Shown one piece after another: positions 3,080-43,193 of a stretch of DNA of 64,000 bases. The position numbers were made by a program, and so were the translations under genes. Each line of letters opens with the position of its first letter. The stretch's first letter is position 1. Below the pieces are notes generated by a model, which did no database searches, was not told where the DNA came from, and saw only the letters and a list, made by a program, of their open reading frames with translations. Source of the stretch: Escherichia phage vB_EcoM_Schickermooser; the sequence record NC_048196.1. One strand, written 5' to 3'.

Positions 3080-3086
3080 TGGAATA

Positions 3087-3110
3087 GAGGGGGATTCCCC
3101 CTCTTCTTCC
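3087..3110 (+). terminator. hairpin GAGGGGGA-TT-TCCCCCTC followed by TTCTTCC
   Basis: Perfect 8-bp GC-rich inverted repeat immediately after stop of 26..3079; U-tract interrupted by C so may be a partial terminator. Confidence 0.5.
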
Positions 3111-3140
3111 AATAGAATGGTCTAATGATAGGAGAGATAA

Positions 3141-10512: not shown

Positions 10513-13110
10513 CTAGTGACAGGACGCCCAGGAGTTACCCACATCATATCCGGCAGTAAGCTGAACGTTAAGATTGTAAAATTCTCCAGCCTTAGTAACA
10601 GCTAAAGCAGCAAGTTCACCTGCCCGACTATAGGCTGTAAACCATCCACCTTTGGGAGATTCATGAATGTTAGCCCAAATTTGCCCTGTCTCTTTTTCCT
10701 TATTATGCTTCCATTCTTCGACTTTAGCAAGGCATTCTTTATCAATTTTCTTTTGTTCTTCAGGATCGTCTACTTTTTTCCAACCTAATGATTCGGGTGA
10801 AAACCATTTAAATTCTACAAGGTTACGAGAAACTTCAAGCTGGGCTTCATCGTGATATGCAATCATTTGTTGTACGAAGTCTTTATTCTTCCAGTCATCT
10901 TTAAAGAAGTCAACACTTAGTCCTTCTTCTTCGATCATATCATCATAAATAACCATTGCACGTTTAGCACAGATAACCCCACCGCTTTGGAACAGAGAGT
11001 TAAGAATCGCATGAGCAGAACGAGTAGGAACCTTACGACCGTCAATACCCAAAACATATTGTTTACCAGTCTTAACCCAGAAATCGTTTAAACGTTCTTT
11101 AAGACGCGCCAATGGGAATGCAGCTTCCCAGAAAGCATCGAACACCAATTGACCTGTAAACTTATCGCTACCAATTGTTTTAGCAACCTTGTCGGCTTGT
11201 GCACCATAGGTAATACCATACTTAACAGATTTAGCAGGACTACGTTCAAATTTACGTCCAATAGTTTCAGTGATACGTTTTGCCATCATTGTGTGAACAT
11301 CATTAGGTTTCTCTAACAACAGAGCGTTACAATATTCGTGTGGCTCCGGCTCGTATCGCCAACAGTAGTGTGATTCAATTTTTGCTTCCAAAGAGTCGAA
11401 GTCGTAGCCAATCTGGAAGTATTTAGGAACCTCTACACCAAACAAGTTACGCATCTCCCATCCAAACAAAGATGTGACACGAGGAATATTAGCTACAGAC
11501 CTATGCTTCATACGAGAGGTTGCAGCATCACATGTAGCGGCTGGTGTAGGAATACGCCCATCCGCCCTTACTGCGGCTAAGAAACCTTTATCATATTCTT
11601 GGTCTTCTTCATCTTCTTCCCAATCAGCACCACCACCTAAAATAGAGTTCCTACGATGCTTATACGTTAAGTATTCTACAATCTGTGTAGCATAAGGGAA
11701 TTTCTCACCCAAAGCTTGCAGGTTAGGACAGATTTCTTTTTCCTGACCTTTGGTAAAACATGGGTTAGTCAATACTTTAAGACCGCGACCTTTACCTTTT
11801 GCTATACGCTCTTGAATCTTCCTTTCCAAGGTTTCCGGTGTGCACTCCAGATGATCACAACGGTCCTGACAAAAATTAGAAGATAAAGTTTGCTCAACGT
11901 AAGCTCGAATACCTTTCTGAAGTTCTTCCTCGCTCTTTTTAATCTTGGTGCCAGATTTAAGAGTCAAATCTTTATCTTTATATTCCGATGGTACCCAACC
12001 TAATCCTACAAGCCAGTTTTTAATATGGGTTGTATCGTTTAATGTTGCAGGGATGTGAGGATCACATAAAGGCTCATCTGCTGCAACTGGCAGTTTCCAC
12101 TCTTTCCCCAACATAACTAACCACCAATCTCCATCCCTCTCTTCCAAATGACCATCATGTTTCTTAGCAAAATTGATCATATGGTTAGTTGGTTCTAAGT
12201 TCTTTTTAATTTGCAACTTAGGTGGAATAAAAGCTTTAAGATAACCTTTTGTTGCTGGTTTAGGTGGCAAAATAGGCTCAACGAGTAAACGAAGACGCTC
12301 CATTTCTGCATCCAAAAAAGCAAGGTTCTCTTCTGCTTGCTTCATGTTAAAAGCAAACCCACGGTGTTCCTGGCGCGTGATAATGTCTGCTACACGTTGT
12401 TCAAGTTCAAATGGACCTTCCCATTTATCATAATCACCCCATTCTTCCATGAGGTAATTATATACACTTGTGTTGGCTTTGTTATCATAGATACAGTAAT
12501 AAAGCATATCCGCAGCAAAAGTCTTAAATCGATCTTCTTCTGGAATCTCTTTACGGAAATCTATTTTTACATCACCGCCTGCTTTTCGAGAAAGTGCTGC
12601 CAAGCTATGTCCTGATTTGCCCTCAATCTTTCGATCTGGGTTTAACACTTTACTCAAAATCAAAGAGTCAATAAGTTTTACCTTATTTTTGCCCCACGTG
12701 TTATATTTAACACTGTAATCTAATCCATAAAACAGTTTTGTAGCCAACCAGTCATAGTTGATACCGTTGTGTGCCACAGCCATTTCAACCAAATATTCAG
12801 GCTTGTCTTTAAAATAACCTTCATGATTAATAAAGTCTGGGAAATCTTTTAGTTGAAAATGTGTGTAATCTTGCGCCACATATTCTTTAAGAACATACGT
12901 GTATTTACCATCTGATTCTTCATAAGGACGCCCGTCAAAAATATACTTAGGGCCATCGTGGAAAGCTACTATCTCTCCTGTTTCATGGTTCTCTAAGACA
13001 ATACAGTGCATTTGAAATGTGTCTTTGAGACGATAAGGACTAGCTAAATAATCGATAGTGTCATTATTCAACAATCCGTTTGCTTCAATATCCCATGTAA
13101 ACTTACTCAC
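10513..13110 (-). CDS. DNA polymerase, family A (865 aa)
   Basis: N-terminal 3'-5' exonuclease Exo I motif DIEANGL; polymerase motif B KSVKYGITYGA and motif C AYHDEAQLEV. Confidence 0.9.
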   Translation of the reverse strand: MSKFTWDIEANGLLNNDTIDYLASPYRLKDTFQMHCIVLENHETGEIVAFHDGPKYIFDGRPYEESDGKYTYVLKEYVAQDYTHFQLKDFPDFINHEGYFKDKPEYLVEMAVAHNGINYDWLATKLFYGLDYSVKYNTWGKNKVKLIDSLILSKVLNPDRKIEGKSGHSLAALSRKAGGDVKIDFRKEIPEEDRFKTFAADMLYYCIYDNKANTSVYNYLMEEWGDYDKWEGPFELEQRVADIITRQEHRGFAFNMKQAEENLAFLDAEMERLRLLVEPILPPKPATKGYLKAFIPPKLQIKKNLEPTNHMINFAKKHDGHLEERDGDWWLVMLGKEWKLPVAADEPLCDPHIPATLNDTTHIKNWLVGLGWVPSEYKDKDLTLKSGTKIKKSEEELQKGIRAYVEQTLSSNFCQDRCDHLECTPETLERKIQERIAKGKGRGLKVLTNPCFTKGQEKEICPNLQALGEKFPYATQIVEYLTYKHRRNSILGGGADWEEDEEDQEYDKGFLAAVRADGRIPTPAATCDAATSRMKHRSVANIPRVTSLFGWEMRNLFGVEVPKYFQIGYDFDSLEAKIESHYCWRYEPEPHEYCNALLLEKPNDVHTMMAKRITETIGRKFERSPAKSVKYGITYGAQADKVAKTIGSDKFTGQLVFDAFWEAAFPLARLKERLNDFWVKTGKQYVLGIDGRKVPTRSAHAILNSLFQSGGVICAKRAMVIYDDMIEEEGLSVDFFKDDWKNKDFVQQMIAYHDEAQLEVSRNLVEFKWFSPESLGWKKVDDPEEQKKIDKECLAKVEEWKHNKEKETGQIWANIHESPKGGWFTAYSRAGELAALAVTKAGEFYNLNVQLTAGYDVGNSWASCH

Positions 13111-13904
13111 TATTCCTCCTTTCTAATGTTCTCCAGAACCCACTGAAGTTCTTTTAAACTTAAACTTCTTACTCCCGCAGTTTTACTAGCTTCGGCTTTA
13201 AGTAACGGGTAAGCCTCAATGATACGCGTTTTAAGATCAGAAGTCAAGGCTTTTAAAAAATAGGTAGATGCTTCAGATAAAGAATCTTCTTCTGATAACA
13301 CTTTACCTGCACTTGCTCCCGCTCTCCTAACGGCTATGTCGTAGTCTTTACTGTTGCCTAATACGAATAGTCGATTTTCTCCTAAAACAACGGGAGAACG
13401 CTTCTCGTTGCGTTTAATCCATACCTGGAATACACAAGGAACATCCCAAGGTTCTCCATGAAGAATAAAAGATCCTTTTGGACATTCTTCTTCGTAAAGA
13501 AGATGCATGTGGGGATTTAGTTTGTGTGCAAAAAAGATTTTTTGAAATGTGCGAGGCAAGATAAAACAAATACCACCTTCGTTATCCAACATTTCAGCAC
13601 AATGGTTAAAGAACTTAATGGCAAGACTAGCATTTTTTCCAAACGGAGGATTACCGACAAAAGCAGTTACACTACCAACAGACTCAACAGATTGAGCTAA
13701 AAAATCTGCCTCAATACAATCTTCAAACTTAGGGTCAATATCAAAAGAAGTTATGTTTTTAAAACAAGAAGAGAAAGCTCCTTCTCCCGCAGATGGTTCT
13801 ACGTAGTTAGCTTCCTCTCCAAAAATTTCTTTGATCTTATCACATAAGAACCCCGCATAAGCGGGGTTAGTGTAATATTGATCAAGTGTGTTCAACTTGC
13901 TCAA
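13110..13904 (-). CDS. DNA methyltransferase (amino-methyltransferase, NPPF motif; 264 aa)
   Basis: Motif I-like EPSAGEGAF and catalytic motif IV VGNPPFGK; start overlaps polymerase stop. Confidence 0.7.
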   Translation of the reverse strand: MSKLNTLDQYYTNPAYAGFLCDKIKEIFGEEANYVEPSAGEGAFSSCFKNITSFDIDPKFEDCIEADFLAQSVESVGSVTAFVGNPPFGKNASLAIKFFNHCAEMLDNEGGICFILPRTFQKIFFAHKLNPHMHLLYEEECPKGSFILHGEPWDVPCVFQVWIKRNEKRSPVVLGENRLFVLGNSKDYDIAVRRAGASAGKVLSEEDSLSEASTYFLKALTSDLKTRIIEAYPLLKAEASKTAGVRSLSLKELQWVLENIRKEE

Positions 13905-14423: not shown

Positions 14424-14439
14424 AAGGGCCGAAGCCCTT
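14424..14439 (-). terminator. intergenic hairpin AAGGGC-CGAA-GCCCTT
   Basis: 6-bp stem at the 3' end of the primase-helicase gene on the minus strand; short U-tract. Confidence 0.35.
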
Positions 14440-16216
14440 AATAGTTGCTATCCGTAGGCAAATTAGCAGGATTGTTGAAATACTGCTCTTTGTCATGCAG
14501 AGTTGCAGTTCTAATGTCATAGTAAAACTGCCCTGCCGGACCCGTTTCCGAGAACTCACGGTTTTTTAGGATAAAGCAATGAGTCGTATTGCGTTCTACA
14601 GGGTCTTCAGCGGCTTTATCTCGTTCCAAAGCCAAGGTAATACCAGCACCTTTAGCCAAGAAACTACTACCCATTGCATCGTCCTCTGTTAAGTGTTCAT
14701 TGCCACCATTAGCTGACTTCTTAACGTGTGAGATGACGATAATAGTTATAGCATACTCTTTCATGATTCGCTTCAACCATGTTGCTAACTCTTCCTGGGC
14801 TTGAACATCCATACCAGAAAGCAAATCAGAATAAGGGTCGATAACAAGAATTGTTACTCCAAAATAGATGATCATCTCCAAAACTTTTTCTTTGATAGAC
14901 TCCACATCTGCTCCACGATCATCACACACATAAAAACGTGGTGATCCATCTTCTCTTTCGTAAAAATCTAGGATTTTTTCTTTATTCTCTTCCAAGATTT
15001 GAAATTTCTCTTCCGGTGTTTTCCTGTGTAGAGGAATATGCAAGAAAGAGGACAACAGGTTACGAGAATATTTCTTATAAGTTGCTTCCAAGGACAGAAT
15101 ACCTAGGGTATGTTCTGGGTGTGCAACGATAATATGTTTGGTGATCTCGTTCACCATCAAAGTTTTACCGATACTGGTCTTTGCCAGGATGACTGTAATC
15201 TCTTCCTCTACTAAACCACCACCCAGCATATTTGCAGCAACACGCATAAAAGGAGGCAAGGTAATCATCTTGGATTCCAAGCATTCTAATGCAGCTTCAT
15301 ACAAGACATTAGAAGCATAAACACCTGCTGGGGTGTATAGACGAGCACTCCAAAAAGCTTTTACGAAATCTTTTGCACGACCTTCTTCCAGATACTGATT
15401 GGCATCCTTAAGATCCATCTGCATACGGTAGACTTTGTTACGAGGCAGCACCTTAACAATATTTTCAAATGCCTCATTACCTGCTTTGTCATTATCCATG
15501 CAAACAATAATCTTCTTAAATTTTTCAAAGAAAGGATATTGTGCCTGAACTTGTTTATACATACTGGTTTCACCAGTTGTGCCACTAACTACTGCTGGAA
15601 GTTCATATTTGTTGTCCAAGTTTTCAGACAGCATTTGATAAGCTGCCAGAGCATCGTGTTCACCACCTGTAATTACCACAGTATGAGAACGGTCTGCAAA
15701 ACGAATTTGTCCAAAAAGATCTACATCTTTACCTACTTGACCAATAGGTTTACTGAAATCTTTAGGATGAATACGACGCTTAAAACCAACCAATTCTTTA
15801 CCGATAGTAGTCGGATATAAACAACTTTCTACTACCATCTGATCCCCTTCCTGACGGTATTCATAACGAACACCATAGAAAGATGAAACTTTTTCTTTAA
15901 TGCCTCGATAACCACGTGGGTTGGTTGATGTTTCTTGAACAATTTTACGATGAATCTGTTTATTAAATTCCGAACCCACAATCTCCTCCTCTTCTTCTAA
16001 AACTTCACCATTTTCTCGTAACCATTCTACGCTAGGAATAGTGTATTCACACGCAAAGCACTTAGCACCTTTATGCTCTCCATTAGAATCTAATCCATAA
16101 ACCATCAGGTTATTACGAGAGCGATCCTTGCCATTTTTCATGCAGCGCGGACAACCTGTATGCCCTTCCTTGCTAAGATCAACATCAAATCCATATTTAG
16201 TTATAATGTGCGACAC
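14438..16216 (-). CDS. bifunctional primase-helicase (T7 gp4-like; 592 aa)
   Basis: N-terminal zinc ribbon CPRCMKNG...CFACEY; C-terminal DnaB-like helicase Walker A ILAKTSIGKT and Walker B-like VLVIDPYSDL. Confidence 0.8.
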   Translation of the reverse strand: MSHIITKYGFDVDLSKEGHTGCPRCMKNGKDRSRNNLMVYGLDSNGEHKGAKCFACEYTIPSVEWLRENGEVLEEEEEIVGSEFNKQIHRKIVQETSTNPRGYRGIKEKVSSFYGVRYEYRQEGDQMVVESCLYPTTIGKELVGFKRRIHPKDFSKPIGQVGKDVDLFGQIRFADRSHTVVITGGEHDALAAYQMLSENLDNKYELPAVVSGTTGETSMYKQVQAQYPFFEKFKKIIVCMDNDKAGNEAFENIVKVLPRNKVYRMQMDLKDANQYLEEGRAKDFVKAFWSARLYTPAGVYASNVLYEAALECLESKMITLPPFMRVAANMLGGGLVEEEITVILAKTSIGKTLMVNEITKHIIVAHPEHTLGILSLEATYKKYSRNLLSSFLHIPLHRKTPEEKFQILEENKEKILDFYEREDGSPRFYVCDDRGADVESIKEKVLEMIIYFGVTILVIDPYSDLLSGMDVQAQEELATWLKRIMKEYAITIIVISHVKKSANGGNEHLTEDDAMGSSFLAKGAGITLALERDKAAEDPVERNTTHCFILKNREFSETGPAGQFYYDIRTATLHDKEQYFNNPANLPTDSNY

Positions 16217-16228: not shown

Positions 16229-16507
16229 TTAAAATGGTTCGTTAGTCTCCATCATATATTCTGCTTCTAGTTCTTCCATATGCTTTCTAAATTGGAAAGC
16301 AATTTCTGCTACAGTTACATTTAAATCTTTTTCAAAAACTTCTGTAGAGCCTTCATAAAAACGAATACCGTCAATTAAAAGCCCTCCGTGGTAATCCCAA
16401 TCACTTTCACGAGAAAGCGGGTTAGGCTCTTCATAATAGTAATCCACCTCCACGACTAAAGCTTTCCCGTTACGAGTGGTGTATTCAAAATCAAAAGTGT
16501 TAATCAT
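16229..16507 (-). CDS. hypothetical protein (92 aa)
   Basis: ORF in gene train; start abuts downstream gene. Confidence 0.5.
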   Translation of the reverse strand: MINTFDFEYTTRNGKALVVEVDYYYEEPNPLSRESDWDYHGGLLIDGIRFYEGSTEVFEKDLNVTVAEIAFQFRKHMEELEAEYMMETNEPF

Positions 16508-17451
16508 TATAGCTCCTCAAATAAAAGTCTACGACGCTCATTCAACACATCAATGTGATAATGAGTCCTGACATACTTAGCTAATGCTAATCCTTTCTCC
16601 ATGCAAACATCGGGAGCACTTAATAAGTATTCCGTAATATCTTTCCACTCGGAAGGTGTTTCAGCAAAGAATAACAAATCTTTAAACTCTTGTGTATGAT
16701 AATTCTCACGAGGAGAACAGATCAAAGGTAAACCCTTAGCACCTGCCTCAAGAATTTTAAGATTGCTTTTTGCATTATTAAACACGTTATCAATCAATGG
16801 CGCAAGACTGATTTGATGACCATCGTAAGATTCCATGTAGTTGGCATATGGTCTTACACCTTCATAAACACAAGTTGGTGCTACATTTTCTCTGATTACA
16901 GACCATTCACGACTACTTAAAACTTCAGAATCCCTACGAAAACCACATATTGTAAGATCTTTACCAAAATCGGGCAAGATAGCCAAATCTTGTTTATGTG
17001 TTTCACTTCCAGCCCAGACTAATGGAGTTTTGGAGTAGCGATCACGGGTCAACACAAATTGACCTTCCTCGTAAGGAAGTCCATTAGGGATTATGTGCAC
17101 ATTATCATTGTATTGTGAAAGTTCAACTTGCAAGGCAGGTGTCGTAGTTGTAACAAGATCACTGTGCTCTAAAAACCATTTTAAATGTTCACGAATACCT
17201 GATTCAAAAATACCTTCTAACATGTGTCCTTTTGGAATAACTAAAGAGTCATCCAAATCCATAACCATTTTAAAGCCTAGGTTTTTAAGGGCTAAAAAGC
17301 CCTCTTTACCTTTTGTTGGCACTCCGTTAAAAACGAAAACGTTGTGTTTAGGTTGTGAAGAGAACTGCCTTGAGTAAGGCAGCACTACCCTATGGAAATC
17401 GCAGACACTATAATTGATTCCGTTACGATTGTCAAGAATTATTTGTCCCAT
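16507..17451 (-). CDS. GT-B fold glycosyltransferase-like protein, paralog 1 (314 aa)
   Basis: C-terminal KSNLKILEAGAKGLPLICS resembles the GT1/GT4 motif (LEA.A.G.P.I); paralogous to 17459..18445. Confidence 0.45.
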   Translation of the reverse strand: MGQIILDNRNGINYSVCDFHRVVLPYSRQFSSQPKHNVFVFNGVPTKGKEGFLALKNLGFKMVMDLDDSLVIPKGHMLEGIFESGIREHLKWFLEHSDLVTTTTPALQVELSQYNDNVHIIPNGLPYEEGQFVLTRDRYSKTPLVWAGSETHKQDLAILPDFGKDLTICGFRRDSEVLSSREWSVIRENVAPTCVYEGVRPYANYMESYDGHQISLAPLIDNVFNNAKSNLKILEAGAKGLPLICSPRENYHTQEFKDLLFFAETPSEWKDITEYLLSAPDVCMEKGLALAKYVRTHYHIDVLNERRRLLFEEL

Positions 17452-17458
17452 ACTTCAC

Positions 17459-18445
17459 CTACAAACTTTCAATAACCTGGCGTCGCAATTCGTTTGCATC
17501 TGCCAGATTATAATGTGTTCGAACATGTTCCGCTAAGAACAAGCCGCGATCTTCCCGATAGTTCGGATTGCGAAGAAGCTTAACAATTTCGTAATGCCAT
17601 TCTGCTTTATTCTCTGCATAAGCAACAGCGCGAGCATCTACAGGGTTAAAATAAGGTAATACCTTAGAACAAACAATCGGAATACCTTTTGCCCCAGCTT
17701 CAAGGATTTTGAGATTACTTTTACAATTATTAAAATCATTATCTACCAAAGGAGCTATAGCAATAGCATGACTTTCGTAAACACTCATGTAATTATCTAA
17801 ATCTTTTACAGCAGCTTTATATTTGGCATTTGGTAAATTTCTACGGATCTTAATCCACTCTTGCCCTGTGATACTCTGCGAAGCTTCATACCCCGCAATA
17901 GTAAGAAGTTCATCATCAAAAGTGTTAGAGACTAGTCGTAAATCAGGTTCATGACTAGCACCTCCAGCCCATACAATAGGGGTACCGGATGAACGGTCAT
18001 TTGACAAAGTAAATTGTCCGCTATCAAAAGGAAGTGCATTTCGGATTACAACAACATTTCTATTTAAATGACGGATTTTATATGCCAAATATTCCGTAGT
18101 CACAATGACCACATCAGCAAGCTTAACCATAGCCACAATAGCGTGAGTGTTTGACTCATATAAACTTGCTAAATAATGTTCTGGATTAAGTTGGTAGAAA
18201 TCATCTAAATCTACAACAATCTTAACACCTTGACGTTTCAGGGACAGAACATATTCTGCACCTTTAGAATGAATACGGTTAAACACGACAACATCTTTCT
18301 TAGGCTGAAAATTATTGTTGTTAAATGGTATAACAATACGATGATAATCACAACCGCTGTGAGGTTTTGCATCAATTTTCAGTTTAGTCCATTTTTTATT
18401 TGACATGTGCCAGTGCCTCCTCATAAGAAATTCGGATTTTCCCAT
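17459..18445 (-). CDS. GT-B fold glycosyltransferase-like protein, paralog 2 (328 aa)
   Basis: Shares KSNLKILEAGAKGIPIVCS, PIVWAG and other blocks with 16507..17451. Confidence 0.45.
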   Translation of the reverse strand: MGKSEFLMRRHWHMSNKKWTKLKIDAKPHSGCDYHRIVIPFNNNNFQPKKDVVVFNRIHSKGAEYVLSLKRQGVKIVVDLDDFYQLNPEHYLASLYESNTHAIVAMVKLADVVIVTTEYLAYKIRHLNRNVVVIRNALPFDSGQFTLSNDRSSGTPIVWAGGASHEPDLRLVSNTFDDELLTIAGYEASQSITGQEWIKIRRNLPNAKYKAAVKDLDNYMSVYESHAIAIAPLVDNDFNNCKSNLKILEAGAKGIPIVCSKVLPYFNPVDARAVAYAENKAEWHYEIVKLLRNPNYREDRGLFLAEHVRTHYNLADANELRRQVIESL

Positions 18446-19079
18446 TTTTAATATCTTCTAAAGACGCTTTATATTCTTCCCAGTTAATGCCAATAGCAGC
18501 TTCTTTCTCTTCTTTTGTCAGGTTAGCAAAAGGCATAGGATTGTTTCCAAAAACATCGTCTGGGTGGATATAAGCCATGATACGAAGTGGACAAGGTATT
18601 GCCTGAATACCCTGATTCAAACCAGCAGCTTTCAAACGGTGTACCCATTCAGCATCTTCAAAACCATAGCCGTGAGTGTAAGGGCGGAAATAACCCATCT
18701 TCTCAACAACGGCACGAGAATACATTGCAAATTGACACATTGCAAGCTCCCAGAGAATAACTTCTCCTTTACTCCCAACAACTTTATCTTTGAAATACTC
18801 CGGCATACCAAAGAAATCCCATCCTCCAGAGACAGCTTGATCTACAAAATATGTTTCCCATCCCTCCATGATTGGGTAGCAATCGTCGTCAAAAATAAAC
18901 CAATAATCATAACCTTCTTCATAAAACTGGTGCATAAGTTCATTCCTGGCGTAAGCTACACCTTTACGATCTGGATCGTTGAATACTCGAAAATCTGCAT
19001 GTGGATCTGTTACAAGATAGTCTTTAAGTGGACGGACACCTACAGTGATAACACCCACTCCGATTTTAATATTTTCCAT
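18396..19079 (-). CDS. GT-A type (DxD) glycosyltransferase-like protein (227 aa)
   Basis: GVAYARNEL and WFIFDDDCYP (DxD) motifs typical of GT-A fold enzymes; 3' end overlaps next gene by about 50 nt. Confidence 0.4.
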   Translation of the reverse strand: MENIKIGVGVITVGVRPLKDYLVTDPHADFRVFNDPDRKGVAYARNELMHQFYEEGYDYWFIFDDDCYPIMEGWETYFVDQAVSGGWDFFGMPEYFKDKVVGSKGEVILWELAMCQFAMYSRAVVEKMGYFRPYTHGYGFEDAEWVHRLKAAGLNQGIQAIPCPLRIMAYIHPDDVFGNNPMPFANLTKEEKEAAIGINWEEYKASLEDIKNGKIRISYEEALAHVK

Positions 19080-19087
19080 TTTCTCTC

Positions 19088-19651
19088 CTAGATAGTTTTA
19101 CTGTGATCGTGACAGTGTAATAAATGATGTATAGACCGTTGAGGATTTGTTTGACCTAATCTGTAAATGTGAAACAGATACATTCCCCGCATCAATCCTA
19201 ACCTCTTTCCTTTTTCATGTAAAGTGCGAGAGAAAATTAAGTCGAATTGGATAGATTTTTCTTCGAAAGGAATTTCATTCCACAATGATTTTCTAAAAAG
19301 CAAAAAGAAACCTGCCAGAGGTGTTCCGAAAGGAACTTCTTCAACACTCACTTTATGATATTCTCTTGCAATCTTAGCATATTCTATATGGTTTAGAATG
19401 TCTGGATCATCGTTAATTTGGTTAGAGAAAAGCTGATAACCACTACCTAACCTGTTACAAGTTGCACCTATTACATCAAAAGGCGGGTTTGACATAACAA
19501 GCTCTTCAAGCATAGATGGTTGATCAGGTAGGAGGAACATCGTATCGGTATCTCTTAAACACACCCAACTATCATCTGGAAGAACGGCAATAGCTTCATT
19601 GATAGCCTTGCCGATATTTCCTGTCAGATAGGGAGTAATATAATAAATCAT
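19088..19651 (-). CDS. hypothetical protein, possible DxD glycosyltransferase-like (187 aa)
   Basis: N-terminal YYITPYLTGNIGKAINEAI...CLRDTDTMF with a DTD motif; weak assignment. Confidence 0.35.
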   Translation of the reverse strand: MIYYITPYLTGNIGKAINEAIAVLPDDSWVCLRDTDTMFLLPDQPSMLEELVMSNPPFDVIGATCNRLGSGYQLFSNQINDDPDILNHIEYAKIAREYHKVSVEEVPFGTPLAGFFLLFRKSLWNEIPFEEKSIQFDLIFSRTLHEKGKRLGLMRGMYLFHIYRLGQTNPQRSIHHLLHCHDHSKTI

Positions 19652-20974: not shown

Positions 20975-21577
20975 TTATGGACATTCATACCATTCTTTTT
21001 TACCACCGAAGGCCATCACCACATCGCAAATATCCAGACCAGCTTTACCTACACCATATGCTTTCAGCTTCCATTCTCCATCTTCACGAACCAGGGAAGC
21101 CACGTGGCAGATTGTGTTGCCAGCTACTTCAGGAGCCAGGAAGTCAAAATCCAGAATTTCCACATTACGCTCGGAGTCGAAGATTTTAAGCATACCTTCA
21201 GAAGCATGACCAAAACGTTTCAGACCTGTATCATCATCAATAGTCAGAACAAAGGCAATCTCTTGTGCATCAGGAGAGATTTTAGCCAGAGTAATATCAA
21301 TCTGCTCCATGCTGCCAGTTCCATCACGAACATCGTCACCAGCAAAGGTAGAACGTTCAGGATCAAACTTATTAGCATAGCAAACCAGATGACGTGCAGA
21401 CAGCATTTCAGGATTGCCAGCGGCATTGTGACGACAAACCAGTGCACTTACATCCAGATCCAGTTTAGAATCAGATTTCCAAGAGAATTCCAGGCGTAGT
21501 TCTTTCAGAGCCGGAGCAACTTTCTTCAGGGAAATTTTTTCGCTAGAGCCTTTTTTCAGGGAAATTTTATCAGTCAT
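20975..21577 (-). CDS. TerD-domain protein (200 aa)
   Basis: N-terminal (K)ISLKK motifs and Ca-binding-like GDDVRDGTGSMEQIDI block as in TerD/TerE proteins; size about 190-200 aa. Confidence 0.75.
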   Translation of the reverse strand: MTDKISLKKGSSEKISLKKVAPALKELRLEFSWKSDSKLDLDVSALVCRHNAAGNPEMLSARHLVCYANKFDPERSTFAGDDVRDGTGSMEQIDITLAKISPDAQEIAFVLTIDDDTGLKRFGHASEGMLKIFDSERNVEILDFDFLAPEVAGNTICHVASLVREDGEWKLKAYGVGKAGLDICDVVMAFGGKKEWYECP

Positions 21578-21592
21578 CTTTTGTCTCCTCTA

Positions 21593-21862
21593 TTATTTAA
21601 GTGTAATACCAGTTACAGTCAATTCTACTTCCAAAAGCTTAGATGTGTTTTGGATTGCTACTAATTGTGCATGATGGTTTAGTTCTACAGCAGAATAATC
21701 ATTTTCCCCATCATCTACTTTTAAATAAACAATTACTTCACTAAGGTCTAAACCATTTTCGTCAAATGCATTTTCATAGACGAAAGTATCTCCTACATCC
21801 AAATCTTTAATGGTAAGGCATCGTTTATTTACTTTTTGCTCATCAATTTCGAAGTTTAACAC
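21593..21862 (-). CDS. hypothetical protein (89 aa), paralog of 22884..23228
   Basis: Shares DLxVGDTFxYxxAFDExGLD...VTxITLK with the 114-aa ORF. Confidence 0.5.
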   Translation of the reverse strand: MLNFEIDEQKVNKRCLTIKDLDVGDTFVYENAFDENGLDLSEVIVYLKVDDGENDYSAVELNHHAQLVAIQNTSKLLEVELTVTGITLK

Positions 21863-22091
21863 TTCTTCCTCCTAATGTTATCTCCGGTTTGTATATACGA
21901 AGAATTATAGCATTTTCATTTTCTTTGTCAACCCATTCTTCATAATCAGGCCATACATGAATCTCTACTCTACTTACAATATCTTCCATCCGCACAGTCC
22001 CAATGAAATATTCTTTGAGACTGCGCATAATGAAAGCTTCTCTCTCGCGCCAATAATTTTCTACGACTTGAGAGGCAAGCTCGTCGATCAT
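21843..22091 (-). CDS. hypothetical protein (82 aa)
   Basis: ORF overlapping both neighbours by a few codons. Confidence 0.45.
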   Translation of the reverse strand: MIDELASQVVENYWREREAFIMRSLKEYFIGTVRMEDIVSRVEIHVWPDYEEWVDKENENAIILRIYKPEITLGGRSVKLRN

Positions 22092-22882
22092 TTTTTAGCA
22101 CCTACTTTAACAACCCACTCTCCGAACTCTTCAGATAAGAGTTTGTCATAAAGCTCTGAATCTGTCAAGTCTAAATCTTTAATGCCAATAAAACCAACAT
22201 TGTCATAAGCATTTGCCAGTTCTTTCAGGAAGCTGAACTTCTCATTACCAACGCCAACCATGAACCAATAGATAGGCTTATTCTTATTCTCTTCAATAAG
22301 ACGACGAACAGCACTAGGATCACCATTCTCACCGTCTGTCTGGAAGAATACAACGCCAGGAGTAACATCAGCACCTGGTTCAGATACAGCTACAACTTTT
22401 TCACGCTCTACCGATACTGTTTCAGTTTTACCAAGCAGACGATTAAAGAAGCCTTTCTTTGGAGCCTCCTCTTGTACCACTTGTTTAGTGGTAACATATT
22501 TGGTAACAGTGCCAAAATACTCATCGTAGATATCTGCCATTACAGGGGCGTAATTTGTTCCACCTCCGATACGAACATTACGCATACATTTACCAACGTA
22601 GTCATCGTAAACGTCTGCTGTTGCTGGAGTAAGCTCTTGAGAACTCGTATTGAAGGCCCACATGTCAATTTGTTCATTATCGTCGAACAGCATACCAAAA
22701 GGAAGCAGTTTACCTACAAAATCACTCACTACCCCACGAGTATATAGACCATGCATACTACCAGAAATATCTAGAGCACATGCTACACGAAGAACAATCT
22801 TACCTTCGTTCAGGTTCTTATTCTTTTTCAGAGAGAAAGCAAGGTTTTCTTGACGTTTTTTCAGGCTGATTTTCTCGGACAT
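22088..22882 (-). CDS. von Willebrand factor A (vWA) domain protein, TerY-like (264 aa)
   Basis: MIDAS motif DISGSM after a TerD-like N-terminal KISLKK segment; sits within the Ter-like gene set. Confidence 0.7.
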   Translation of the reverse strand: MSEKISLKKRQENLAFSLKKNKNLNEGKIVLRVACALDISGSMHGLYTRGVVSDFVGKLLPFGMLFDDNEQIDMWAFNTSSQELTPATADVYDDYVGKCMRNVRIGGGTNYAPVMADIYDEYFGTVTKYVTTKQVVQEEAPKKGFFNRLLGKTETVSVEREKVVAVSEPGADVTPGVVFFQTDGENGDPSAVRRLIEENKNKPIYWFMVGVGNEKFSFLKELANAYDNVGFIGIKDLDLTDSELYDKLLSEEFGEWVVKVGAKK

Positions 22883-22883
22883 A

Positions 22884-23228
22884 TTATTTCTCCTTCTTAA
22901 GTGTAATATTGGTAACTTCTAAATCTACTTCCACCATATTTGTATCTGGTGGGATGCAATGAGTATAGCCTCGTTGTGCTAGTGATCCATTAATACAGAT
23001 CGCACTGTTTGTGGAATTTTTAATGAACACCAAGTTACGGTAGGTATCCAACCCTGCGTCTTCATAGGCATCATAATACATGAATGTGTCCCCTATGCCA
23101 AGGTCTTCGAAAGCAATAGGTAAATCCTGACACTTTTCTTCTTGAATATTGAATCTAAACACGCATACCTCCTCTACCAATTTTGAAGCCCAAATCGTAA
23201 GCTTCCTTAGTGATCTTTTGTAACTCAC
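22884..23228 (-). CDS. hypothetical protein (114 aa), paralog of 21593..21862
   Basis: Shares LGIGDTFMYYDAYEDAGLD...VTNITLK with the 89-aa ORF. Confidence 0.5.
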   Translation of the reverse strand: MSYKRSLRKLTIWASKLVEEVCVFRFNIQEEKCQDLPIAFEDLGIGDTFMYYDAYEDAGLDTYRNLVFIKNSTNSAICINGSLAQRGYTHCIPPDTNMVEVDLEVTNITLKKEK

Positions 23229-23718
23229 TTATAGGAAGTGTTACAAGAGGATCATCTTCTTCAATTTCCATCTTGTCATCTTCTGTTTCAATGAGAGTAT
23301 TATGCACTTTGTGATAAGGGTTGTCAACACGTTTAAACTTATTCTTTTCTGTGCTGAAAAAACAATCTGGATCTTCTTCGCCATCACCCCAACCTTGGTT
23401 AGGATCTCCGTCAGATTGTTCTGTAGGGATTTCACCTGTAAAATACTCTTCCAGCACCATAGCGATACCGTCCCTTGGATTCGAGGAATGCATTAAATCA
23501 CAAACCTTACCCCAATCCATAGCCCATTCGAACCGTTCACGAACGCCATTTTCATCCTCCTTTCCAGAGAAAACACAACCATAACTATCATAGTTGCCAT
23601 ACATCTCTTCAATAACAACACCATCCTTCAAAAGAAAGAGATAGCAAGGTGATCCGTCGAAAGAAGTAGAAAGGGCAGCTTTGCCCGATTCCTTACACAA
23701 AAAGCTAAAACAACCCAT
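23155..23718 (-). CDS. hypothetical acidic protein (187 aa)
   Basis: ORF with acidic Asp/Glu-rich C-terminal half; overlaps downstream ORF so start or stop may differ. Confidence 0.45.
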   Translation of the reverse strand: MGCFSFLCKESGKAALSTSFDGSPCYLFLLKDGVVIEEMYGNYDSYGCVFSGKEDENGVRERFEWAMDWGKVCDLMHSSNPRDGIAMVLEEYFTGEIPTEQSDGDPNQGWGDGEEDPDCFFSTEKNKFKRVDNPYHKVHNTLIETEDDKMEIEEDDPLVTLPISELQKITKEAYDLGFKIGRGGMRV

Positions 23719-23915
23719 TACAAACCCTCCTTCAGATTATCAAGAGCTACAGTGGTTTCACAAAATTCTCCATACGCTTTATGATGTTCTAGAAAAGCTT
23801 CAGGTCCACCCCAATCATTATCTTGTGTATTCCAACCATCAATAAAAGCATCTTCAATGATTGTGATCAGTTCCTGTCGAGTCAACGTAATGGTATCAGG
23901 TTTTGGATTATGCAT
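23718..23915 (-). CDS. hypothetical protein (65 aa)
   Basis: Small ORF in gene train. Confidence 0.4.
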   Translation of the reverse strand: MHNPKPDTITLTRQELITIIEDAFIDGWNTQDNDWGGPEAFLEHHKAYGEFCETTVALDNLKEGL

Positions 23916-24077
23916 CTTCTTTCTCCTCTAAAATATGAAACCCATAGCTACAATAGTCCTGAAAGGTTTCGTGTGCAAGATCTTCTATATCCTCTTGAGA
24001 CATATCATCTTCAATTTCGATATCCACAACCTCATTGCATCCACACCAAGCAGTTTCAATATTCACTCGTAAAGTTT

Positions 24078-24275
24078 TCATTCTTCTTCCTCATTGAAGT
24101 CAATATCTGCAAGGAGTTGAAATTTACGGAAGTTACGACAACCTTCATAAATATAACAATCACGACAAACTGCTAGAACACTTGGGGGATATATGCCTCC
24201 CATCGGTGCGAATCGTTTTTCGTCATCATAACGGACACCAATGTCTTCATCAATTATATAGATACGGATTCTCAT
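24078..24275 (-). CDS. hypothetical small Cys-containing protein (65 aa)
   Basis: Start overlaps TelA-like gene stop; CRDCYIYEGC motif. Confidence 0.4.
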   Translation of the reverse strand: MRIRIYIIDEDIGVRYDDEKRFAPMGGIYPPSVLAVCRDCYIYEGCRNFRKFQLLADIDFNEEEE

Positions 24276-25384
24276 TTACCAAGCCCTCGTTTCACAGCAG
24301 CTACCATCCCGTCTTCCAGAGATTGAACTTCATTAATATAATCAACACGAGCAGCACGGGCTTCCGTATTGATGCGGTTAGTTTCTTCCAACATCTTAAC
24401 CAAGTTTTCCTGATCGTGACGCAGAGTTTCAATATCCAACACTTGACGGTTAGCCAGTGCTGCTGCTTCGATCTGATTCTGTGTGGCAAGATCGCTACCC
24501 AGTTTAATTGCCAGGTTAAATTCATCAAGAACGTTATTCTGCGTCTCTGCTGCTTTCATTTGACGTAAGCTCTCGATATACATTGAGAAGTTAGCAGAGT
24601 AAGCAGGAATAACATTATTTACTATGTTACGCGCAGATCGCATTAAGCTTGCAGAAACTTTTTGCATACCTTGCACACGTGGTCCCATTTGGACACACAG
24701 TAGGCGCAATGCTTTTAAATCGGCAATACGAATCTCCAGAAGATCCAAAGTATCTCGGATCACTTGTCGCTGTTCTACTGCATCTTCTGGAAGAGCAGCC
24801 AAAGCTTGTTCTTCTTTTTCATAGGTTGCTGTTAGAAGCTGCATATCTCGGTTCAAACTTGCAGCATATTGTCCAATAGCTTGATGCAGTTTTTCAAGAT
24901 ATACCAAGGAATCTTCTTCTTTGCGAATATCCATTTGAAGGTTCTTTACCAACTCTTCAATACGGTTATTAACATTATCAAACTCCCCAAACAGGTCTTC
25001 TTTCATACCCATAACTTTTTTAATGAGTTTAGTAATACCTTTGCTTTGTTTAATAGAGTTTGGATCAAGTTGTTTTGCCTGTTTAATCAAAGCTGTGAGT
25101 CGTTCACTCATCTGATCGCCTTGATTACTACGTTGATGTTTTAATACCTCGGCATTCAAGGAACGCAAGGTTGTCCCTGCCTCTGCCCCGATCTCTTCGA
25201 TCTCTTGTCGGGTCATAGAAGGCAAAACTGGGACTTCTTGCGGTGCGGCTGGTGCATAAACAGGACTGGCATCTAATACGCTTGGAGCGAATACAGATTT
25301 ACTTGCATCTGTTGTTGCAGTGAATACACTCATTTCAGACTTCTTCTGACCACCAGTAGCTGCTTTTAAAAACGGACTTGTCAT
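24272..25384 (-). CDS. TelA-like (toxic anion resistance / KlaA family) protein (370 aa)
   Basis: Size, largely helical coiled-coil composition and position in a TerC/TerD/vWA neighbourhood; assignment partly contextual, no sharp motif recognised. Confidence 0.5.
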   Translation of the reverse strand: MTSPFLKAATGGQKKSEMSVFTATTDASKSVFAPSVLDASPVYAPAAPQEVPVLPSMTRQEIEEIGAEAGTTLRSLNAEVLKHQRSNQGDQMSERLTALIKQAKQLDPNSIKQSKGITKLIKKVMGMKEDLFGEFDNVNNRIEELVKNLQMDIRKEEDSLVYLEKLHQAIGQYAASLNRDMQLLTATYEKEEQALAALPEDAVEQRQVIRDTLDLLEIRIADLKALRLLCVQMGPRVQGMQKVSASLMRSARNIVNNVIPAYSANFSMYIESLRQMKAAETQNNVLDEFNLAIKLGSDLATQNQIEAAALANRQVLDIETLRHDQENLVKMLEETNRINTEARAARVDYINEVQSLEDGMVAAVKRGLGK

Positions 25385-25971
25385 TCTTCATTCTCCTCTT
25401 CTGCATCTCTTATGTATGGTGAAACACCGTATTCTTTAGCTACTTTAACCCAATCGTCCCATTTATACAACCATAATTTTCCTTCTGTTCCTTCTTTATC
25501 TGATTTTAACCACATATTAGGTTGCTTACCTGGATACATGCGATTAGGTTTACGATTATACCCTCTAACACATCTTGTCGCAAACCTATCCACCAAAACA
25601 AGAACATATTTATATTCATGGTTCAACGGCTCTTTGGAAGTAGCTTTAGGGTTTGCCCCTAATTCTGCTGCCAGTTTTTGCCAATGAGCACCGTGCCGAC
25701 TAAACTTACCCATACAACCATCAATAGCATGAGCAATTTCGTGCTTCATTGTATCCACGATCATATCTCTTGTAGAGTTCTTATGCAAGTGCCAATTTAC
25801 AACAACAATTTTATCTCGGTAGTTGCACCAACCGAAAGAGTTATTCACTTTGTTTCTAACGCAAGCTTTATATCCTGCTTCACGTAACATGTTGTAGTAA
25901 ACAGGAAAATCTTCTTTTATTTCCTGCATCACTTCCCACCACAAGAGTTGCAAGTCTCTCTCGGTATACAT
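25381..25971 (-). CDS. SprT-like zinc metallopeptidase-domain protein (196 aa)
   Basis: HExxH motif in MKHEIAHAIDGCMGKFSRHGAHWQKLAAELG, resembling SprT-like domains. Confidence 0.55.
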   Translation of the reverse strand: MYTERDLQLLWWEVMQEIKEDFPVYYNMLREAGYKACVRNKVNNSFGWCNYRDKIVVVNWHLHKNSTRDMIVDTMKHEIAHAIDGCMGKFSRHGAHWQKLAAELGANPKATSKEPLNHEYKYVLVLVDRFATRCVRGYNRKPNRMYPGKQPNMWLKSDKEGTEGKLWLYKWDDWVKVAKEYGVSPYIRDAEEENEE

Positions 25972-25974
25972 AAC

Positions 25975-26568
25975 TTACACCTTAAAAGTGAAATGCGTGG
26001 TCGTGGCTTCAAAATCAGGGCCAGATAAACGTGCACTGAAATCTGAAATATTTGTAATTAAAAAGCTTTTATGCATACCCAACACAGCCACGCTTTCAAT
26101 ATCTTCTACTAACATTTCAATCATGTTAGAAACATGGCTGAACGTAGTGTTTTGTTTTTTGATGGTGTAGAAAGAAAGATTCCCACCTGCTGTATAAGAT
26201 ACTTCTTCAAAATCTTTAATCGTATACTGTGTCCCATCAGTAAAGAAAATGGTAGCTTTATTAGTAGCACGTTTCTTGTTTTTTGGTCCTTTTTTACGTT
26301 TACTGCGAGTAGGAAAACCATTTGGGAATACCGTAGCTACAAATTCTTCAGGAGAAACCTCCTTACCGAAATCATAACCATAAGAAACAGCATCTATAAA
26401 CTCATCGTCCTCATTTTTAAAATAATGGAAATAGGGCCAATTTGAAAGATTATCAAGCATCTTATGCTCGTCCACAGCAGAGAATGTATCCCTCAAAGCG
26501 CGTGTGATTTGCAAAGCATTAGGCAACCTTTTAACACCTACGATGGAAGTACGAATAGAAATTGTCAT
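25975..26568 (-). CDS. hypothetical protein (197 aa)
   Basis: ORF in gene train. Confidence 0.5.
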   Translation of the reverse strand: MTISIRTSIVGVKRLPNALQITRALRDTFSAVDEHKMLDNLSNWPYFHYFKNEDDEFIDAVSYGYDFGKEVSPEEFVATVFPNGFPTRSKRKKGPKNKKRATNKATIFFTDGTQYTIKDFEEVSYTAGGNLSFYTIKKQNTTFSHVSNMIEMLVEDIESVAVLGMHKSFLITNISDFSARLSGPDFEATTTHFTFKV

Positions 26569-26582
26569 TGTTTTTCTCCTTA

Positions 26583-27020
26583 TTAACGTCGCTTGCTACG
26601 AGATGAACTCTTTTTACTTAAAGGGCTATTGTAAGATTTACGAGTTGTATAGCTACTATTTGTTTTAAAAGTTTGTCTCGGCTTTTCATAAGTTTTTATC
26701 TCTTGTTTAGGCTTACTATAAAAATTAGTTTTCGGTTTAGGTGTGTTATAATGTTTATTAATAATCGTTCTGTTATCGTTATAATCCCCGCCGCTACGAT
26801 TACTACTACCGCTCATCATATGTCCTAACAACATACCTGTAGCAAACTCACCAACACCGCTACTACTAGAACCGCCACCATTGTTGATAATAGTTGTATC
26901 TCCGTCAGATCCTTGTTGAGCGTATTGTTGAGGAGGTTGTTGATATTGTGTAGGATTTGTTTCATCCTCGCAAGCTGTTAAAAAGATACAACCAATTAAA
27001 ATCAGGGCTAGTTTTTTCAT
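26583..27020 (-). CDS. putative lipoprotein, Gly/Ser-rich with basic C-terminus (145 aa from internal start)
   Basis: MKKLALILIGCIFLTAC... signal peptide with lipobox LTAC; RBS GAGGAAAG upstream of internal ATG at 27020; ORF track's longer start at 27095 is less likely. Confidence 0.5.
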   Translation of the reverse strand: MKKLALILIGCIFLTACEDETNPTQYQQPPQQYAQQGSDGDTTIINNGGGSSSSGVGEFATGMLLGHMMSGSSNRSGGDYNDNRTIINKHYNTPKPKTNFYSKPKQEIKTYEKPRQTFKTNSSYTTRKSYNSPLSKKSSSRSKRR

Positions 27021-27207
27021 ATTTGCTTTCCTCGTTTTGACTATTAATACATCTGTGTTTGAAATCTCCAGAGAAGCAATAAAGCTGCTCTCCATCTCGG
27101 TATAAACTCACTTTACTGCCGTTGATTACGCTTGTCAATACAAAAATTACAACAAACAACCCTATTGCAAAACAAATATTTTCAAACACAACCAACAAGT
27201 ATTTCAT
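26962..27207 (-). CDS. hypothetical small membrane protein (81 aa)
   Basis: Hydrophobic segment FAIGLFVVIFVLTSV; overlaps lipoprotein start by about 59 nt, so extent uncertain. Confidence 0.35.
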   Translation of the reverse strand: MKYLLVVFENICFAIGLFVVIFVLTSVINGSKVSLYRDGEQLYCFSGDFKHRCINSQNEESKYEKTSPDFNWLYLFNSLRG

Positions 27208-27554
27208 TTTAAAAATACCTCATCATCAGTTTCATTATCCCAGAAGAACAAATCCCAACCATTAGGATCATTCCACTTGGCGGTTGGAGAAGTCCAAATT
27301 TGTTCGATATCAATATTCAAAACTTCGCCGTTTCGTTTTGAAACAGCCTTGGTTAATTCCCAACGAGATACAGGTTCTACCTCTCCTGAACCACTCCCAC
27401 AACAAGCTACTACATTAGGAGGAAGGTTAATTGGATCTTTGGTCACAATCATAACGCTTACCCCAGGGTAAACTTTTGAAAGATAATCTGAAACGTAATC
27501 AACATCACCAGGTAAATCCCAAACAAGTTTTTGAATTTCATCGAAATTGCTCAT
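27204..27554 (-). CDS. hypothetical protein (116 aa)
   Basis: ORF in gene train. Confidence 0.5.
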   Translation of the reverse strand: MSNFDEIQKLVWDLPGDVDYVSDYLSKVYPGVSVMIVTKDPINLPPNVVACCGSGSGEVEPVSRWELTKAVSKRNGEVLNIDIEQIWTSPTAKWNDPNGWDLFFWDNETDDEVFLK

Positions 27555-27596
27555 AAGTCTCTCCTATAAAATAGCCTCCCGAAGGAGGCTCATCTA

Positions 27597-28571: not shown

Positions 28572-28650
28572 TCTTTTCTCCTCTCTTTGCGGGGAACTAT
28601 TCCCCGCTTCATGTGATATATCTTACTCTTTTTAAGAACTATGTCAACAC

Positions 28651-28872
28651 TTATTTTGTTGAATGAGAGGAAAAGATTCCTCGTAATACAGCCAGAATAA
28701 ACGAAACACAAACCACGGTCCAGAAGGTTACTGGAACAGTGATATCTGCATGACCCATAACTTCAGCAACATAGTTGTAAGCCAGCAACAGTAACCAAGC
28801 TGGAATCAAACTAAGCATAAAAGCAATAACAAAAAAGCTTACCACTGCAACAATACCTGCAAAAACACCCAT
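28651..28872 (-). CDS. small 2-TM membrane protein (73 aa)
   Basis: Two hydrophobic helices (GIVAVVSFFVIAFMLSLIPAWLLLLAY; VTFWTVVCVSFILAVL). Confidence 0.5.
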   Translation of the reverse strand: MGVFAGIVAVVSFFVIAFMLSLIPAWLLLLAYNYVAEVMGHADITVPVTFWTVVCVSFILAVLRGIFSSHSTK

Positions 28873-28884
28873 ACTAATCTCCTC

Positions 28885-29370: not shown

Positions 29371-29383
29371 TTTTAGCTCCTTA

Positions 29384-41980: not shown

Positions 41981-42234
41981 TTTACTTCCCCTTTGTAATC
42001 GGACACTATACCAGGTCTTACTTTTGCCTTAAGATGTTTCAACTCTACCATAGGAGTTGCCACTTGTATAGGGCTAACTTCAACCTTGTAGATAGTATAT
42101 TCATAAGTCGCATATTTACCGATGGAATGCAAATACTTAATTGCGTGTTCAGGGGAATCTGCTTCAACATACCCTAAATCTTTCGTAGTACGACCTTCGG
42201 TATCGCCTTCAGTGGTTACGTGATAAAGTGTCAT
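41977..42234 (-). CDS. hypothetical protein (85 aa)
   Basis: Small ORF. Confidence 0.45.
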   Translation of the reverse strand: MTLYHVTTEGDTEGRTTKDLGYVEADSPEHAIKYLHSIGKYATYEYTIYKVEVSPIQVATPMVELKHLKAKVRPGIVSDYKGEVK

Positions 42235-43190: not shown

Positions 43191-43193
43191 TAC

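Follow-up and report, generated by a model that had tools for sequence, protein, structure and literature searches.

The present study concerns four adjacent glycosyltransferase (GT) genes in a stretch of 64,000 nucleotides from Escherichia phage vB_EcoM_Schickermooser (NC_048196.1), hereafter the window. Comparison of related loci indicated that the four genes form one modular, mobile cassette, a concept that is new here, and comparative genomics suggests that the cassette serves the glycosylation of virion proteins. It is proposed to be a soluble assembly line building a rhamnose-containing glycan on these proteins, a tentative reading to which we give a probability of about 0.42. In this proposal GT4 would start the glycan by placing one sugar on a phage structural protein, GT3 and the GT-B pair GT2 and GT1 would lengthen it into a short oligosaccharide, and at least one donor would be dTDP-L-rhamnose made by phage RmlB/A/C/D, whose genes lie in another part of the genome. 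A glycan coat would result on the particle surface, most likely on head proteins, where it may shield or stabilise the particle. Of this proposal we infer which acceptor is used, in what order the enzymes act, which sugars serve as donors and what role the glycan plays. The observations in its favour are soluble GTs with conserved motifs, a mobile module, fusions to GT and methyltransferase domains only, head and neck genes as neighbours, rml genes in the same phages, and the low likelihood of DNA as the acceptor.

The window comes from a strictly lytic phAPEC8-like myovirus of the genus Phapecoctavirus, subfamily Stephanstirmvirinae, and more than 60 E. coli phage genomes, each about 150 kb long, share 98-99% identity with a 4-kb region around the GT cluster. 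The four genes are closely packed on the minus strand at 16507-19651 and follow one another in the order GT4-GT3-GT2-GT1. They and a small open reading frame (ORF) next to them are listed below.

19088..19651, minus strand: GT4, a minimal GT-A enzyme of 187 amino acids (aa), phrog_14179; leads the cassette and is its constant member.
18396..19079, minus strand: GT3, a 227-aa GT-A / GT2-like enzyme, phrog_2456; optional cassette member.
17459..18406, minus strand: GT2, likely 315 aa, GT-B (GT4-family-like), phrog_7162 (E 1e-148); paralog of GT1.
16507..17451, minus strand: GT1, 314 aa, GT-B (GT4-family-like), phrog_7162 (E 6e-145); final GT of the cassette.
16229..16507, minus strand: acidic ORF of 92 aa (isoelectric point 4.2), whose start overlaps the GT1 stop; possible accessory, module membership uncertain.

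All four genes encode glycosyltransferases. They match PHROG families of that name with E-values from 1e-79 to 1e-149, and this identity is already public in the RefSeq and PHROGs labels. A preliminary description made from the sequence alone had read the cluster as two GT-B paralogs and two GT-A-like enzymes with DxD motifs; its structural reading holds for all four genes, its suggestion of DNA glycosylation as their function is not supported, and virion protein glycosylation was absent from it.

GT1 and GT2 are paralogs with 41% identity (E 1e-76). In Pfam, GT1 reaches PF13524 with 25.2 bits against a cutoff of 25, GT2 matches Glyco_trans_1_4 and Glyco_trans_1_2 below the cutoff at 20.6 and 22.6 bits, and PF13524 is precomputed on many members of the GT1/GT2 family. 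Searching the PDB with the profile of this family identified TreT (E 1e-4), PglA, BshA and the sucrose-phosphate-synthase-like 6kih over positions 91-316. At 314-315 aa both proteins are short for GT-B enzymes; the N-terminal domain is represented by a weak PF13439 match (E 0.0013) and by the 6kih alignment, and the C-terminal Rossmann domain carries the nucleotide-sugar signature of the Glycos_transf_1 clan. The maximal ORF of GT2 (17459-18445, 328 aa) overlaps GT3 by 50 nucleotides. Since a GAGGAGG ribosome-binding site precedes Met14, the start is probably the ATG at 18406, and the RefSeq start likewise gives 315 aa.

Both GT3 and GT4 show a single Rossmann-like alpha/beta/alpha GT-A fold with a DxD motif that is invariant in each family, and the two have no sequence relationship to each other. 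Residues N18, D34-x-D36, R67, H161, R164 and H176 are invariant in GT4, with D34-x-D36 unchanged across 55 diverse family members. The invariant residues of GT3 are R45, D64-D65-D66 and E141-D142, with D64-D65-D66 unchanged in 14 family members. GT3 stays below the Pfam thresholds for TAGT (PF20691; 19.2 against 27.5, residues 33-68) and Glycos_transf_2 (13 against 23.3), and GT4 matches no Pfam GT family. The two therefore belong to the GT2-like clan at fold or clan level only and represent distinct, uncurated families (phrog_2456 and phrog_14179). Compared one by one with PDB sequences, the four proteins gave noise only, the GT3 and GT4 profiles gave no match there, the GT-B profile alone being informative, and NCBIfam gave no usable match for the four proteins. 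None of the four GTs contains a hydrophobic segment (maximum Kyte-Doolittle mean over 19 residues, 1.65), and three of them are acidic. Although the Pfam scores lie at or under the curated thresholds, as might be expected of inactive remnants or chance ORFs, this explanation is effectively refuted: the ORFs are intact with strong ribosome-binding sites, their conservation reaches 98-100% across more than 60 Phapecoctavirus genomes and 60-80% among Justusliebigvirus and other relatives, and catalytic residues are invariant over about 976 clusters.

Hidden Markov model scans of related loci revealed the modular nature of the cassette. The arrangement GT4-GT3-GTB-GTB occurs in most large myoviruses, including the phi92-like Bas60, and the other architectures found were GT4-GTB-GTB, GT4-GTB, GT4-x-GT3-GTB, GT4-[NDP-sugar 4,6-dehydratase/epimerase]-GT3-GTB, GT4 alone and GT::GT4 fusions. 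GT4 is the single member found in every version, and because it alone is constant it may be the enzyme that specifies the acceptor and initiates the glycan. An exhaustive profile search detected GT4 relatives in 976 clusters at 50% identity (E <= 1e-3). Analysis of ten architectures of the family showed that GT4 is fused to GT domains (TOD1/MUCI70-like or GT2) and to an S-adenosylmethionine methyltransferase (MT) only, protein P0091 being an MT-GT-GT4 fusion; no nucleic-acid-binding domain was seen in these ten. The N-terminal half of the Cellulophaga GT fusion had been considered GT3-like, and this was rejected in favour of a TOD1/MUCI70-like assignment.

A homologous cassette was identified in an HK97-like prophage of Serratia sp. 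M24T3, where GT4-GT3-GT-B stand in the same order as in the window (GT4, hhalign E 4e-63; GT3, E 8e-50; GT-B, 39% identity). It is placed between a lysis cassette and the HNH/TerS/TerL/capsid genes, and it is the sole known homologous cassette within a prophage. The one bacterial homolog of GT1 (P0070) is prophage-borne, and a scan of genome contigs gave one locus only, on a phage-like contig of a metagenome-assembled genome. Sugar-tailoring genes accompany the GTs in some cassettes of both small and large phages: an RmlD-like::NDP-sugar C-methyltransferase fusion (L034:2578-4509), an FkbM-type methyltransferase (L092:5731-6375) and, inserted between GT4 and GT3, the NDP-sugar 4,6-dehydratase/epimerase (L024:10565-11629). 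Their presence implies unusual sugars, such as methylated or branched deoxy-sugars. One small phage encodes a pectate-lyase/beta-helix protein, possibly a depolymerase, directly upstream of GT4 and adjoining the portal gene (L027:5-880).

Small phages carrying GT4 provided the context that points to the particle. Since the 55-sequence alignment was too diverse for locus retrieval, three subgroup profiles were used to collect 116 further loci from IMG/VR; these were dereplicated to 29 GT4 lineages at 60% identity, the proteins within 5 kb on either side were clustered, and recurrent families were annotated. The neighbours recurring most often were the major head protein and the portal (16 of the 29 lineages each), the head maturation protease (12), Neck1/tail completion (11), head closure (10), the head-tail adaptor (9), and head morphogenesis and tail tube proteins (6 each). 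A GT3-like GT lies directly upstream on the same strand in 10 lineages, and other GTs (6), an FkbM-type methyltransferase (4) and the RmlD-like::NDP-sugar C-methyltransferase fusion (3) also recur. A DNA-modification family does not recur among the neighbours in the 29 lineages. Overall, a head or neck gene occurs within 5 kb in 26 of 29 lineages and within 2 kb in 23, for which a crude positional null of 0.33-0.47 gives a P of about 1e-6 to 1e-7, near 3e-7. In most small phages the cassette lies inside the late head-neck operon and is co-directional with it, typical layouts being MCP-[GTs, FkbM, GT3-like, GT4]-adaptor-Hc1-Neck1, where MCP is the major capsid protein, and portal-[cassette]-protease-MCP. 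The head proteins of the Serratia prophage belong to the same families as those of the small phages.

A donor pathway is present in the same phages. Phapecoctaviruses and phi92-like phages carry a dTDP-rhamnose pathway (Olsen et al., PMC7552041). In phAPEC8 (L031, JX561091) the annotated genes form a contiguous RmlB-RmlA-RmlC-RmlD block at 1625-4903. The near-identical phage ZCKP1 (L003, NC_047994) has kept only RmlC and RmlD, at 16250-17652, which were confirmed with 224 and 247 bits; these rml genes lie outside the window. E. coli RffH and RffG make dTDP-4-keto-6-deoxyglucose for the synthesis of enterobacterial common antigen (ECA), and since the host enzymes presumably supply the first two steps, RmlC and RmlD would be enough in ZCKP1. 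The distribution of RmlC among phage records is almost the same as that of GT4, with 63 records at >=95% identity and 65 at 60-80% for RmlC against 63 and 64-67 for GT4. This co-occurrence points to dTDP-L-rhamnose as a putative donor for at least one of the four GTs. Considered together with the cassettes of related phages, the genes amount to a soluble, virus-encoded GT set able to assemble an oligosaccharide, joined by enzymes that tailor sugars and by the phage's own Rml pathway.

The genes downstream of the cassette in the window raise the question of DNA as the acceptor. Besides the two listed here they include a 143-aa ORF, which lies between these two, and a DNA polymerase.

14438-16216: primase-helicase, downstream of the 92-aa ORF.
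13110-13904: NPPF methyltransferase (N6-type, motif VGNPPFGKN), downstream of the cassette.

The preliminary description had proposed that such GTs may glycosylate modified DNA bases, as in T4, and had suggested a wider search for hydroxymethylase or other base-modification genes as well as tests of restriction sensitivity. Under this explanation the GTs would glycosylate a modified base so that the phage DNA evades nucleases, and the modification would have to be sparse or sequence-specific; we consider it improbable. It is consistent with the position near the primase-helicase, the DNA polymerase and the N6-type methyltransferase, a feature also shared with the T4 alpha- and beta-GTs and the T2/T6 enzyme, which are phage GTs near replication genes. 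GT3 shows an R...DDD...ED pattern and, besides its sub-threshold TAGT match, a weak local match to the PHROG of the T-even beta-glucosyl-HMC (hydroxymethylcytosine) alpha-glucosyltransferase, a GT-A enzyme (E 5e-6, along a 40-residue stretch surrounding the DxD). The literature offers further support. Olsen et al. (PMC7552041) speculated on the use of rhamnose on DNA, and Pyle et al. (bioRxiv 10.1101/2023.12.21.572611) described sequential GTs and epimerase-GT pairs that put mono- to trisaccharides on 5-hydroxymethylcytosine (5hmC) in DNA. Finally, the Cellulophaga phage phi18:1, which carries a GT4 fusion, has two C5-methyltransferases.

The enzymes that make an acceptor on DNA were looked for at several levels. 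The base hydroxyl in known phage DNA glycosylation is made by a ThyA-family synthase (5hmC, 5-hydroxymethyluracil or 5-hydroxycytosine; PMC13326640) or, alternatively, by a C5-methyltransferase and a 5mYOX/TET dioxygenase, and as a rule the genes involved lie close to those of the GTs (Pyle et al., bioRxiv 10.1101/2023.12.21.572611). Consistent with the earlier remark that the window holds no recognisable hydroxymethylase, Pfam scans of all mid-size ORFs within 10 kb on either side of the cassette found no dioxygenase (TET_JBP), ThyA or C5-methyltransferase (PF00145), and gave instead TerD, vWA-TerF, TelA, SprT-like, TerC, macro, ComF-like phosphoribosyltransferase (PRTase) and HAD domains. 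No hydroxymethylase, 5mYOX or C5-methyltransferase was found among the ZCKP1 candidates checked, which come from outside the 50-75 kb stretch of that genome (about 25 kb) holding structural genes. In the complete phi18:1 genome, whose two C5-methyltransferases might have suggested such a route, no dioxygenase or ThyA was detectable. The family profile of GT1 and GT2 also shows no similarity to the T4 enzymes: neither the alpha- nor the beta-GT appears among its PDB matches (E <= 1) or the PHROG hits. The acidity of three of the four proteins and the restriction of fusion partners to GT and methyltransferase domains likewise speak against DNA as the substrate, as does the lack of a modification family among the recurrent neighbours of the 29 lineages.

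Published restriction data are in line with these results. HincII cut all Phapecoctavirus and Justusliebigvirus DNAs of one collection, and only three T-even relatives, which serve as controls, were resistant (PMC10269720). Among the phages that were cut, ESCO25 is 98.7% identical to the window across the GT cluster. The phi92-like phages Bas60-62, which carry the full cassette, were described as 'exceptionally susceptible' to type I, II and III restriction-modification systems (PMC8594841). Because no acceptor-making enzyme was found among the genes checked, HincII cuts the DNA and Bas60-62 are restriction-sensitive, wholesale glycosylation of DNA is effectively excluded. Compared with T4-type systems, the phages studied here thus differ in both the hydroxymethylase, which was not found, and the sensitivity of the DNA. 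They resemble the clusters associated with 5mYOX/TET or ThyA (Pyle et al.; Lee et al. 2026, PMC13326640) in having sequential GT-A and GT-B enzymes for building oligosaccharides, sometimes with a sugar epimerase. Common to both are also the unspecific GT-A pattern R...DDD...ED and a structural resemblance to TarP; they differ in that the adjoining C5-methyltransferase and dioxygenase, or ThyA homolog, of those clusters was not found here and in that the TAGT score is sub-threshold. The window contains 67 HincII (GTYRAC) sites against 55.7 expected from shuffled sequences, so the sites are not depleted; this count fits a phage that neither avoids nor masks them.

Several annotations in ZCKP1 deserve mention beside this search. 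The 'putative thymidylate synthase' was rejected as a hydroxymethylase, since it is ThyX (PF02511) and the sole thymidylate-synthase-like gene found. It is a divergent and long ThyX-type protein (23126-24124, 332 aa) with a partial Thy1 profile match of 33 bits, and a 5'-nucleotidase-like gene adjoins it. The 'DNA methyltransferase' genes and their neighbours were rejected as a C5-methyltransferase/dioxygenase pair, as no C5-methyltransferase match was obtained. One gene so named in RefSeq (46806-47285), situated between those for the portal and the head, encodes an XkdF-type prohead serine protease (PF14550, E 1.4e-11), and its wrong label could misdirect anyone looking for modification genes.

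Modification of host surface polysaccharide had also been put forward, and it fits the comparative context poorly. In such a scheme the GTs would act on undecaprenyl-linked or other precursors (lipopolysaccharide core or O-unit, ECA, the N4 glycan receptor used by these phages) and mask receptors, leading to superinfection exclusion or sparing progeny from adsorption to debris, or to seroconversion in the case of a prophage. The top structural and profile matches of the four proteins include polysaccharide, teichoic-acid and undecaprenyl-diphosphate-acting enzymes (TarP, RmlT, PglA, AvpGT, K4CP), and enzymes of this kind are peripheral and lack transmembrane helices. Rhamnose is common in O-antigen, the receptors of these phages are surface glycans, and one homologous cassette occurs in a temperate prophage, after the lysis genes and upstream of the terminase. 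However, no flippase, polymerase, ligase, GtrA/B/C-type or other membrane component was found in or near the cassette, and the late head-neck operon is a poor position for prophage conversion genes or for early receptor masking. The window, moreover, comes from a lytic phage, and Humolli et al. argue that a complete change of abundant surface glycans during the lytic cycle is unlikely to work. The known seroconversion enzymes (S. aureus TarP; GtrABC) differ on the same points: here the phage is lytic, membrane Gtr components are missing and the family sits in late head operons. Remodelling of the host envelope is therefore unlikely, if somewhat less so than the glycosylation of DNA.

Upstream of the cassette the window contains three small ORFs, a SleB-type endolysin and a Ter-type stress/metabolite module, the last lying directly upstream on the minus strand at 20975-30881 with the following genes.

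20975-21577, minus strand: TerD-like.
22088-22882, minus strand: vWA-TerF-like.
24272-25384, minus strand: TelA.
25381-25971, minus strand: SprT-like.
27597-28571, minus strand: TerC.
28885-29445, minus strand: macro-domain.
29384-30211, minus strand: ComF-like PRTase.
30204-30881, minus strand: HAD hydrolase.

The synteny of this module with the cassette is retained in distant large phages (L004, L023 and L024). The 92-aa ORF on the other side of the cassette has an SDWDY motif conserved in L004, L006, L014, L023 and L024, accompanies every large-myovirus version of the cassette, where it follows the GT-B gene and precedes the primase-helicase, and gave no match in a Pfam scan. It was rejected as a universal fifth member, the ORF at the same place in the Serratia prophage being unrelated.

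These neighbours raise the possibility of another acceptor. Candidates are a protein of the phage or host outside the structural set, such as a defence protein or a translation factor, and a small molecule, perhaps connected with the Ter module. All large myoviruses keep the cassette syntenic with this module, including its PRTase, HAD phosphatase and macro domain, and translational coupling joins the conserved small acidic ORF to GT1. Outside the large myoviruses, however, the Ter module does not accompany the cassette, and no homolog of the small ORF occurs with the Serratia cassette. The presence of several GTs and of sugar methyltransferases also argues for an oligosaccharide on a macromolecule rather than on a metabolite. 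An acceptor of this kind is accordingly given low odds, comparable to those of DNA.

Glycosylation of virion proteins remains the preferred reading, and several points weigh against it. In the window the cassette lies outside the head module, flanked by the endolysin/Ter module on one side and the primase-helicase on the other; coupling to structural genes was seen for the GT4 family (the 26 small-phage lineages) and in the Serratia prophage, and not in the window itself. A capsid family common to the small phages and Phapecoctavirus was looked for and none was detected, and because the Phapecoctavirus capsid protein is unlike the capsid family of the small phages, there is no evident shared acceptor. 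The 29 lineages are not fully independent, as their head genes are homologous, and the positional null for head proximity is rough. The rml link is a co-occurrence within one subfamily, and GT-A and GT-B folds do not reveal the type of acceptor. Several GTs alone do not exclude DNA either, given the oligosaccharides that Pyle et al. report on it, and DNA-modifying GTs can also adjoin terminase genes (Pyle et al., 10.1101/2023.12.21.572611). Finally, our literature search found no report of a glycoprotein for any Stephanstirmvirinae virion.

Virion glycosylation is known from other viruses. In mycobacteriophages Che8, Corndog and Myrna, GTs, often two or more, glycosylate capsid and tail-tube subunits and produce a glycan shield (Freeman et al. 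2023, as cited in PMC11256854 and PMC12619734). The likeness lies in phage-encoded soluble GTs, with attachment shown there and proposed here. The differences are the actinobacterial hosts and, according to PMC11256854, the position of the GT genes near the right genome end and not in the head module. The A064R protein of PBCV-1 is a rhamnosyltransferase-rhamnosyltransferase-methyltransferase that builds the capsid glycan (PMC7019647), and its domain set is mirrored by the MT-GT-GT4 fusion of P0091. PBCV-1 is a eukaryotic giant virus, however, the likeness is at fold level only, and the sugar nucleotides may differ.

The purpose of the dTDP-rhamnose and GT genes in phAPEC8-like and phi92-like phages had been flagged as a puzzle (Olsen 2020; Maffei 2021), and our search of the literature turned up no work on what these genes do in Phapecoctavirus, Justusliebigvirus or phi92. 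DNA glycosylation, the sole suggestion of these authors, conflicts with the restriction sensitivity of the phages; both the rhamnose link and this conflict are already published. New in this study are the idea of a cassette that is both mobile and modular, the extent of the GT4 family and its fusions, the head-module context and the tests that weaken the DNA hypothesis. Together, the comparative evidence turns the question of GT function toward virion glycosylation. On a wider scale, and at somewhat less than even odds, the cassette family may represent a widespread, modular and horizontally mobile 'capsid glycan' cassette (about 1000 protein clusters) and the first virion-glycosylation machinery known from phages that infect Gram-negative bacteria, located as a rule in the head-neck operon of small siphoviruses and paired in E. 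coli Stephanstirmvirinae (phAPEC8, phi92, Bas60-62) with the phage's own dTDP-L-rhamnose pathway to form a coat. If this is true, glycan-coated capsids would extend beyond actinobacteriophages and giant viruses, and a rhamnose-containing coat on therapeutic or model phages would affect stability, immune recognition or self-adsorption. Since Phapecoctaviruses are common candidates for phage therapy, a glycan shield could influence antibody recognition, clearance and particle stability during treatment. The E. coli K-12 phages Bas60-62, or any Phapecoctavirus, constitute a tractable test system.

Two minor observations concern sequence records and base composition. The DNA of 'Campylobacter phage' B15 is 98.6% identical to the window over 4 kb, and the GT4 search places 'Campylobacter phages' A150 and C3, at 66% protein identity, among the phi92-like phages (records MG065650, MG065639 and MG065656 for B15, A150 and C3, respectively). 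The host labels of these records are probably wrong, or the records are contaminants. In the window the GC skew changes sign at about 42000-44000, being negative from about 8 kb to 43 kb and positive beyond; this switch coincides with the change from minus- to plus-strand genes in the ZCKP1 annotation and reflects transcription-strand bias, separate from the finding reported here.

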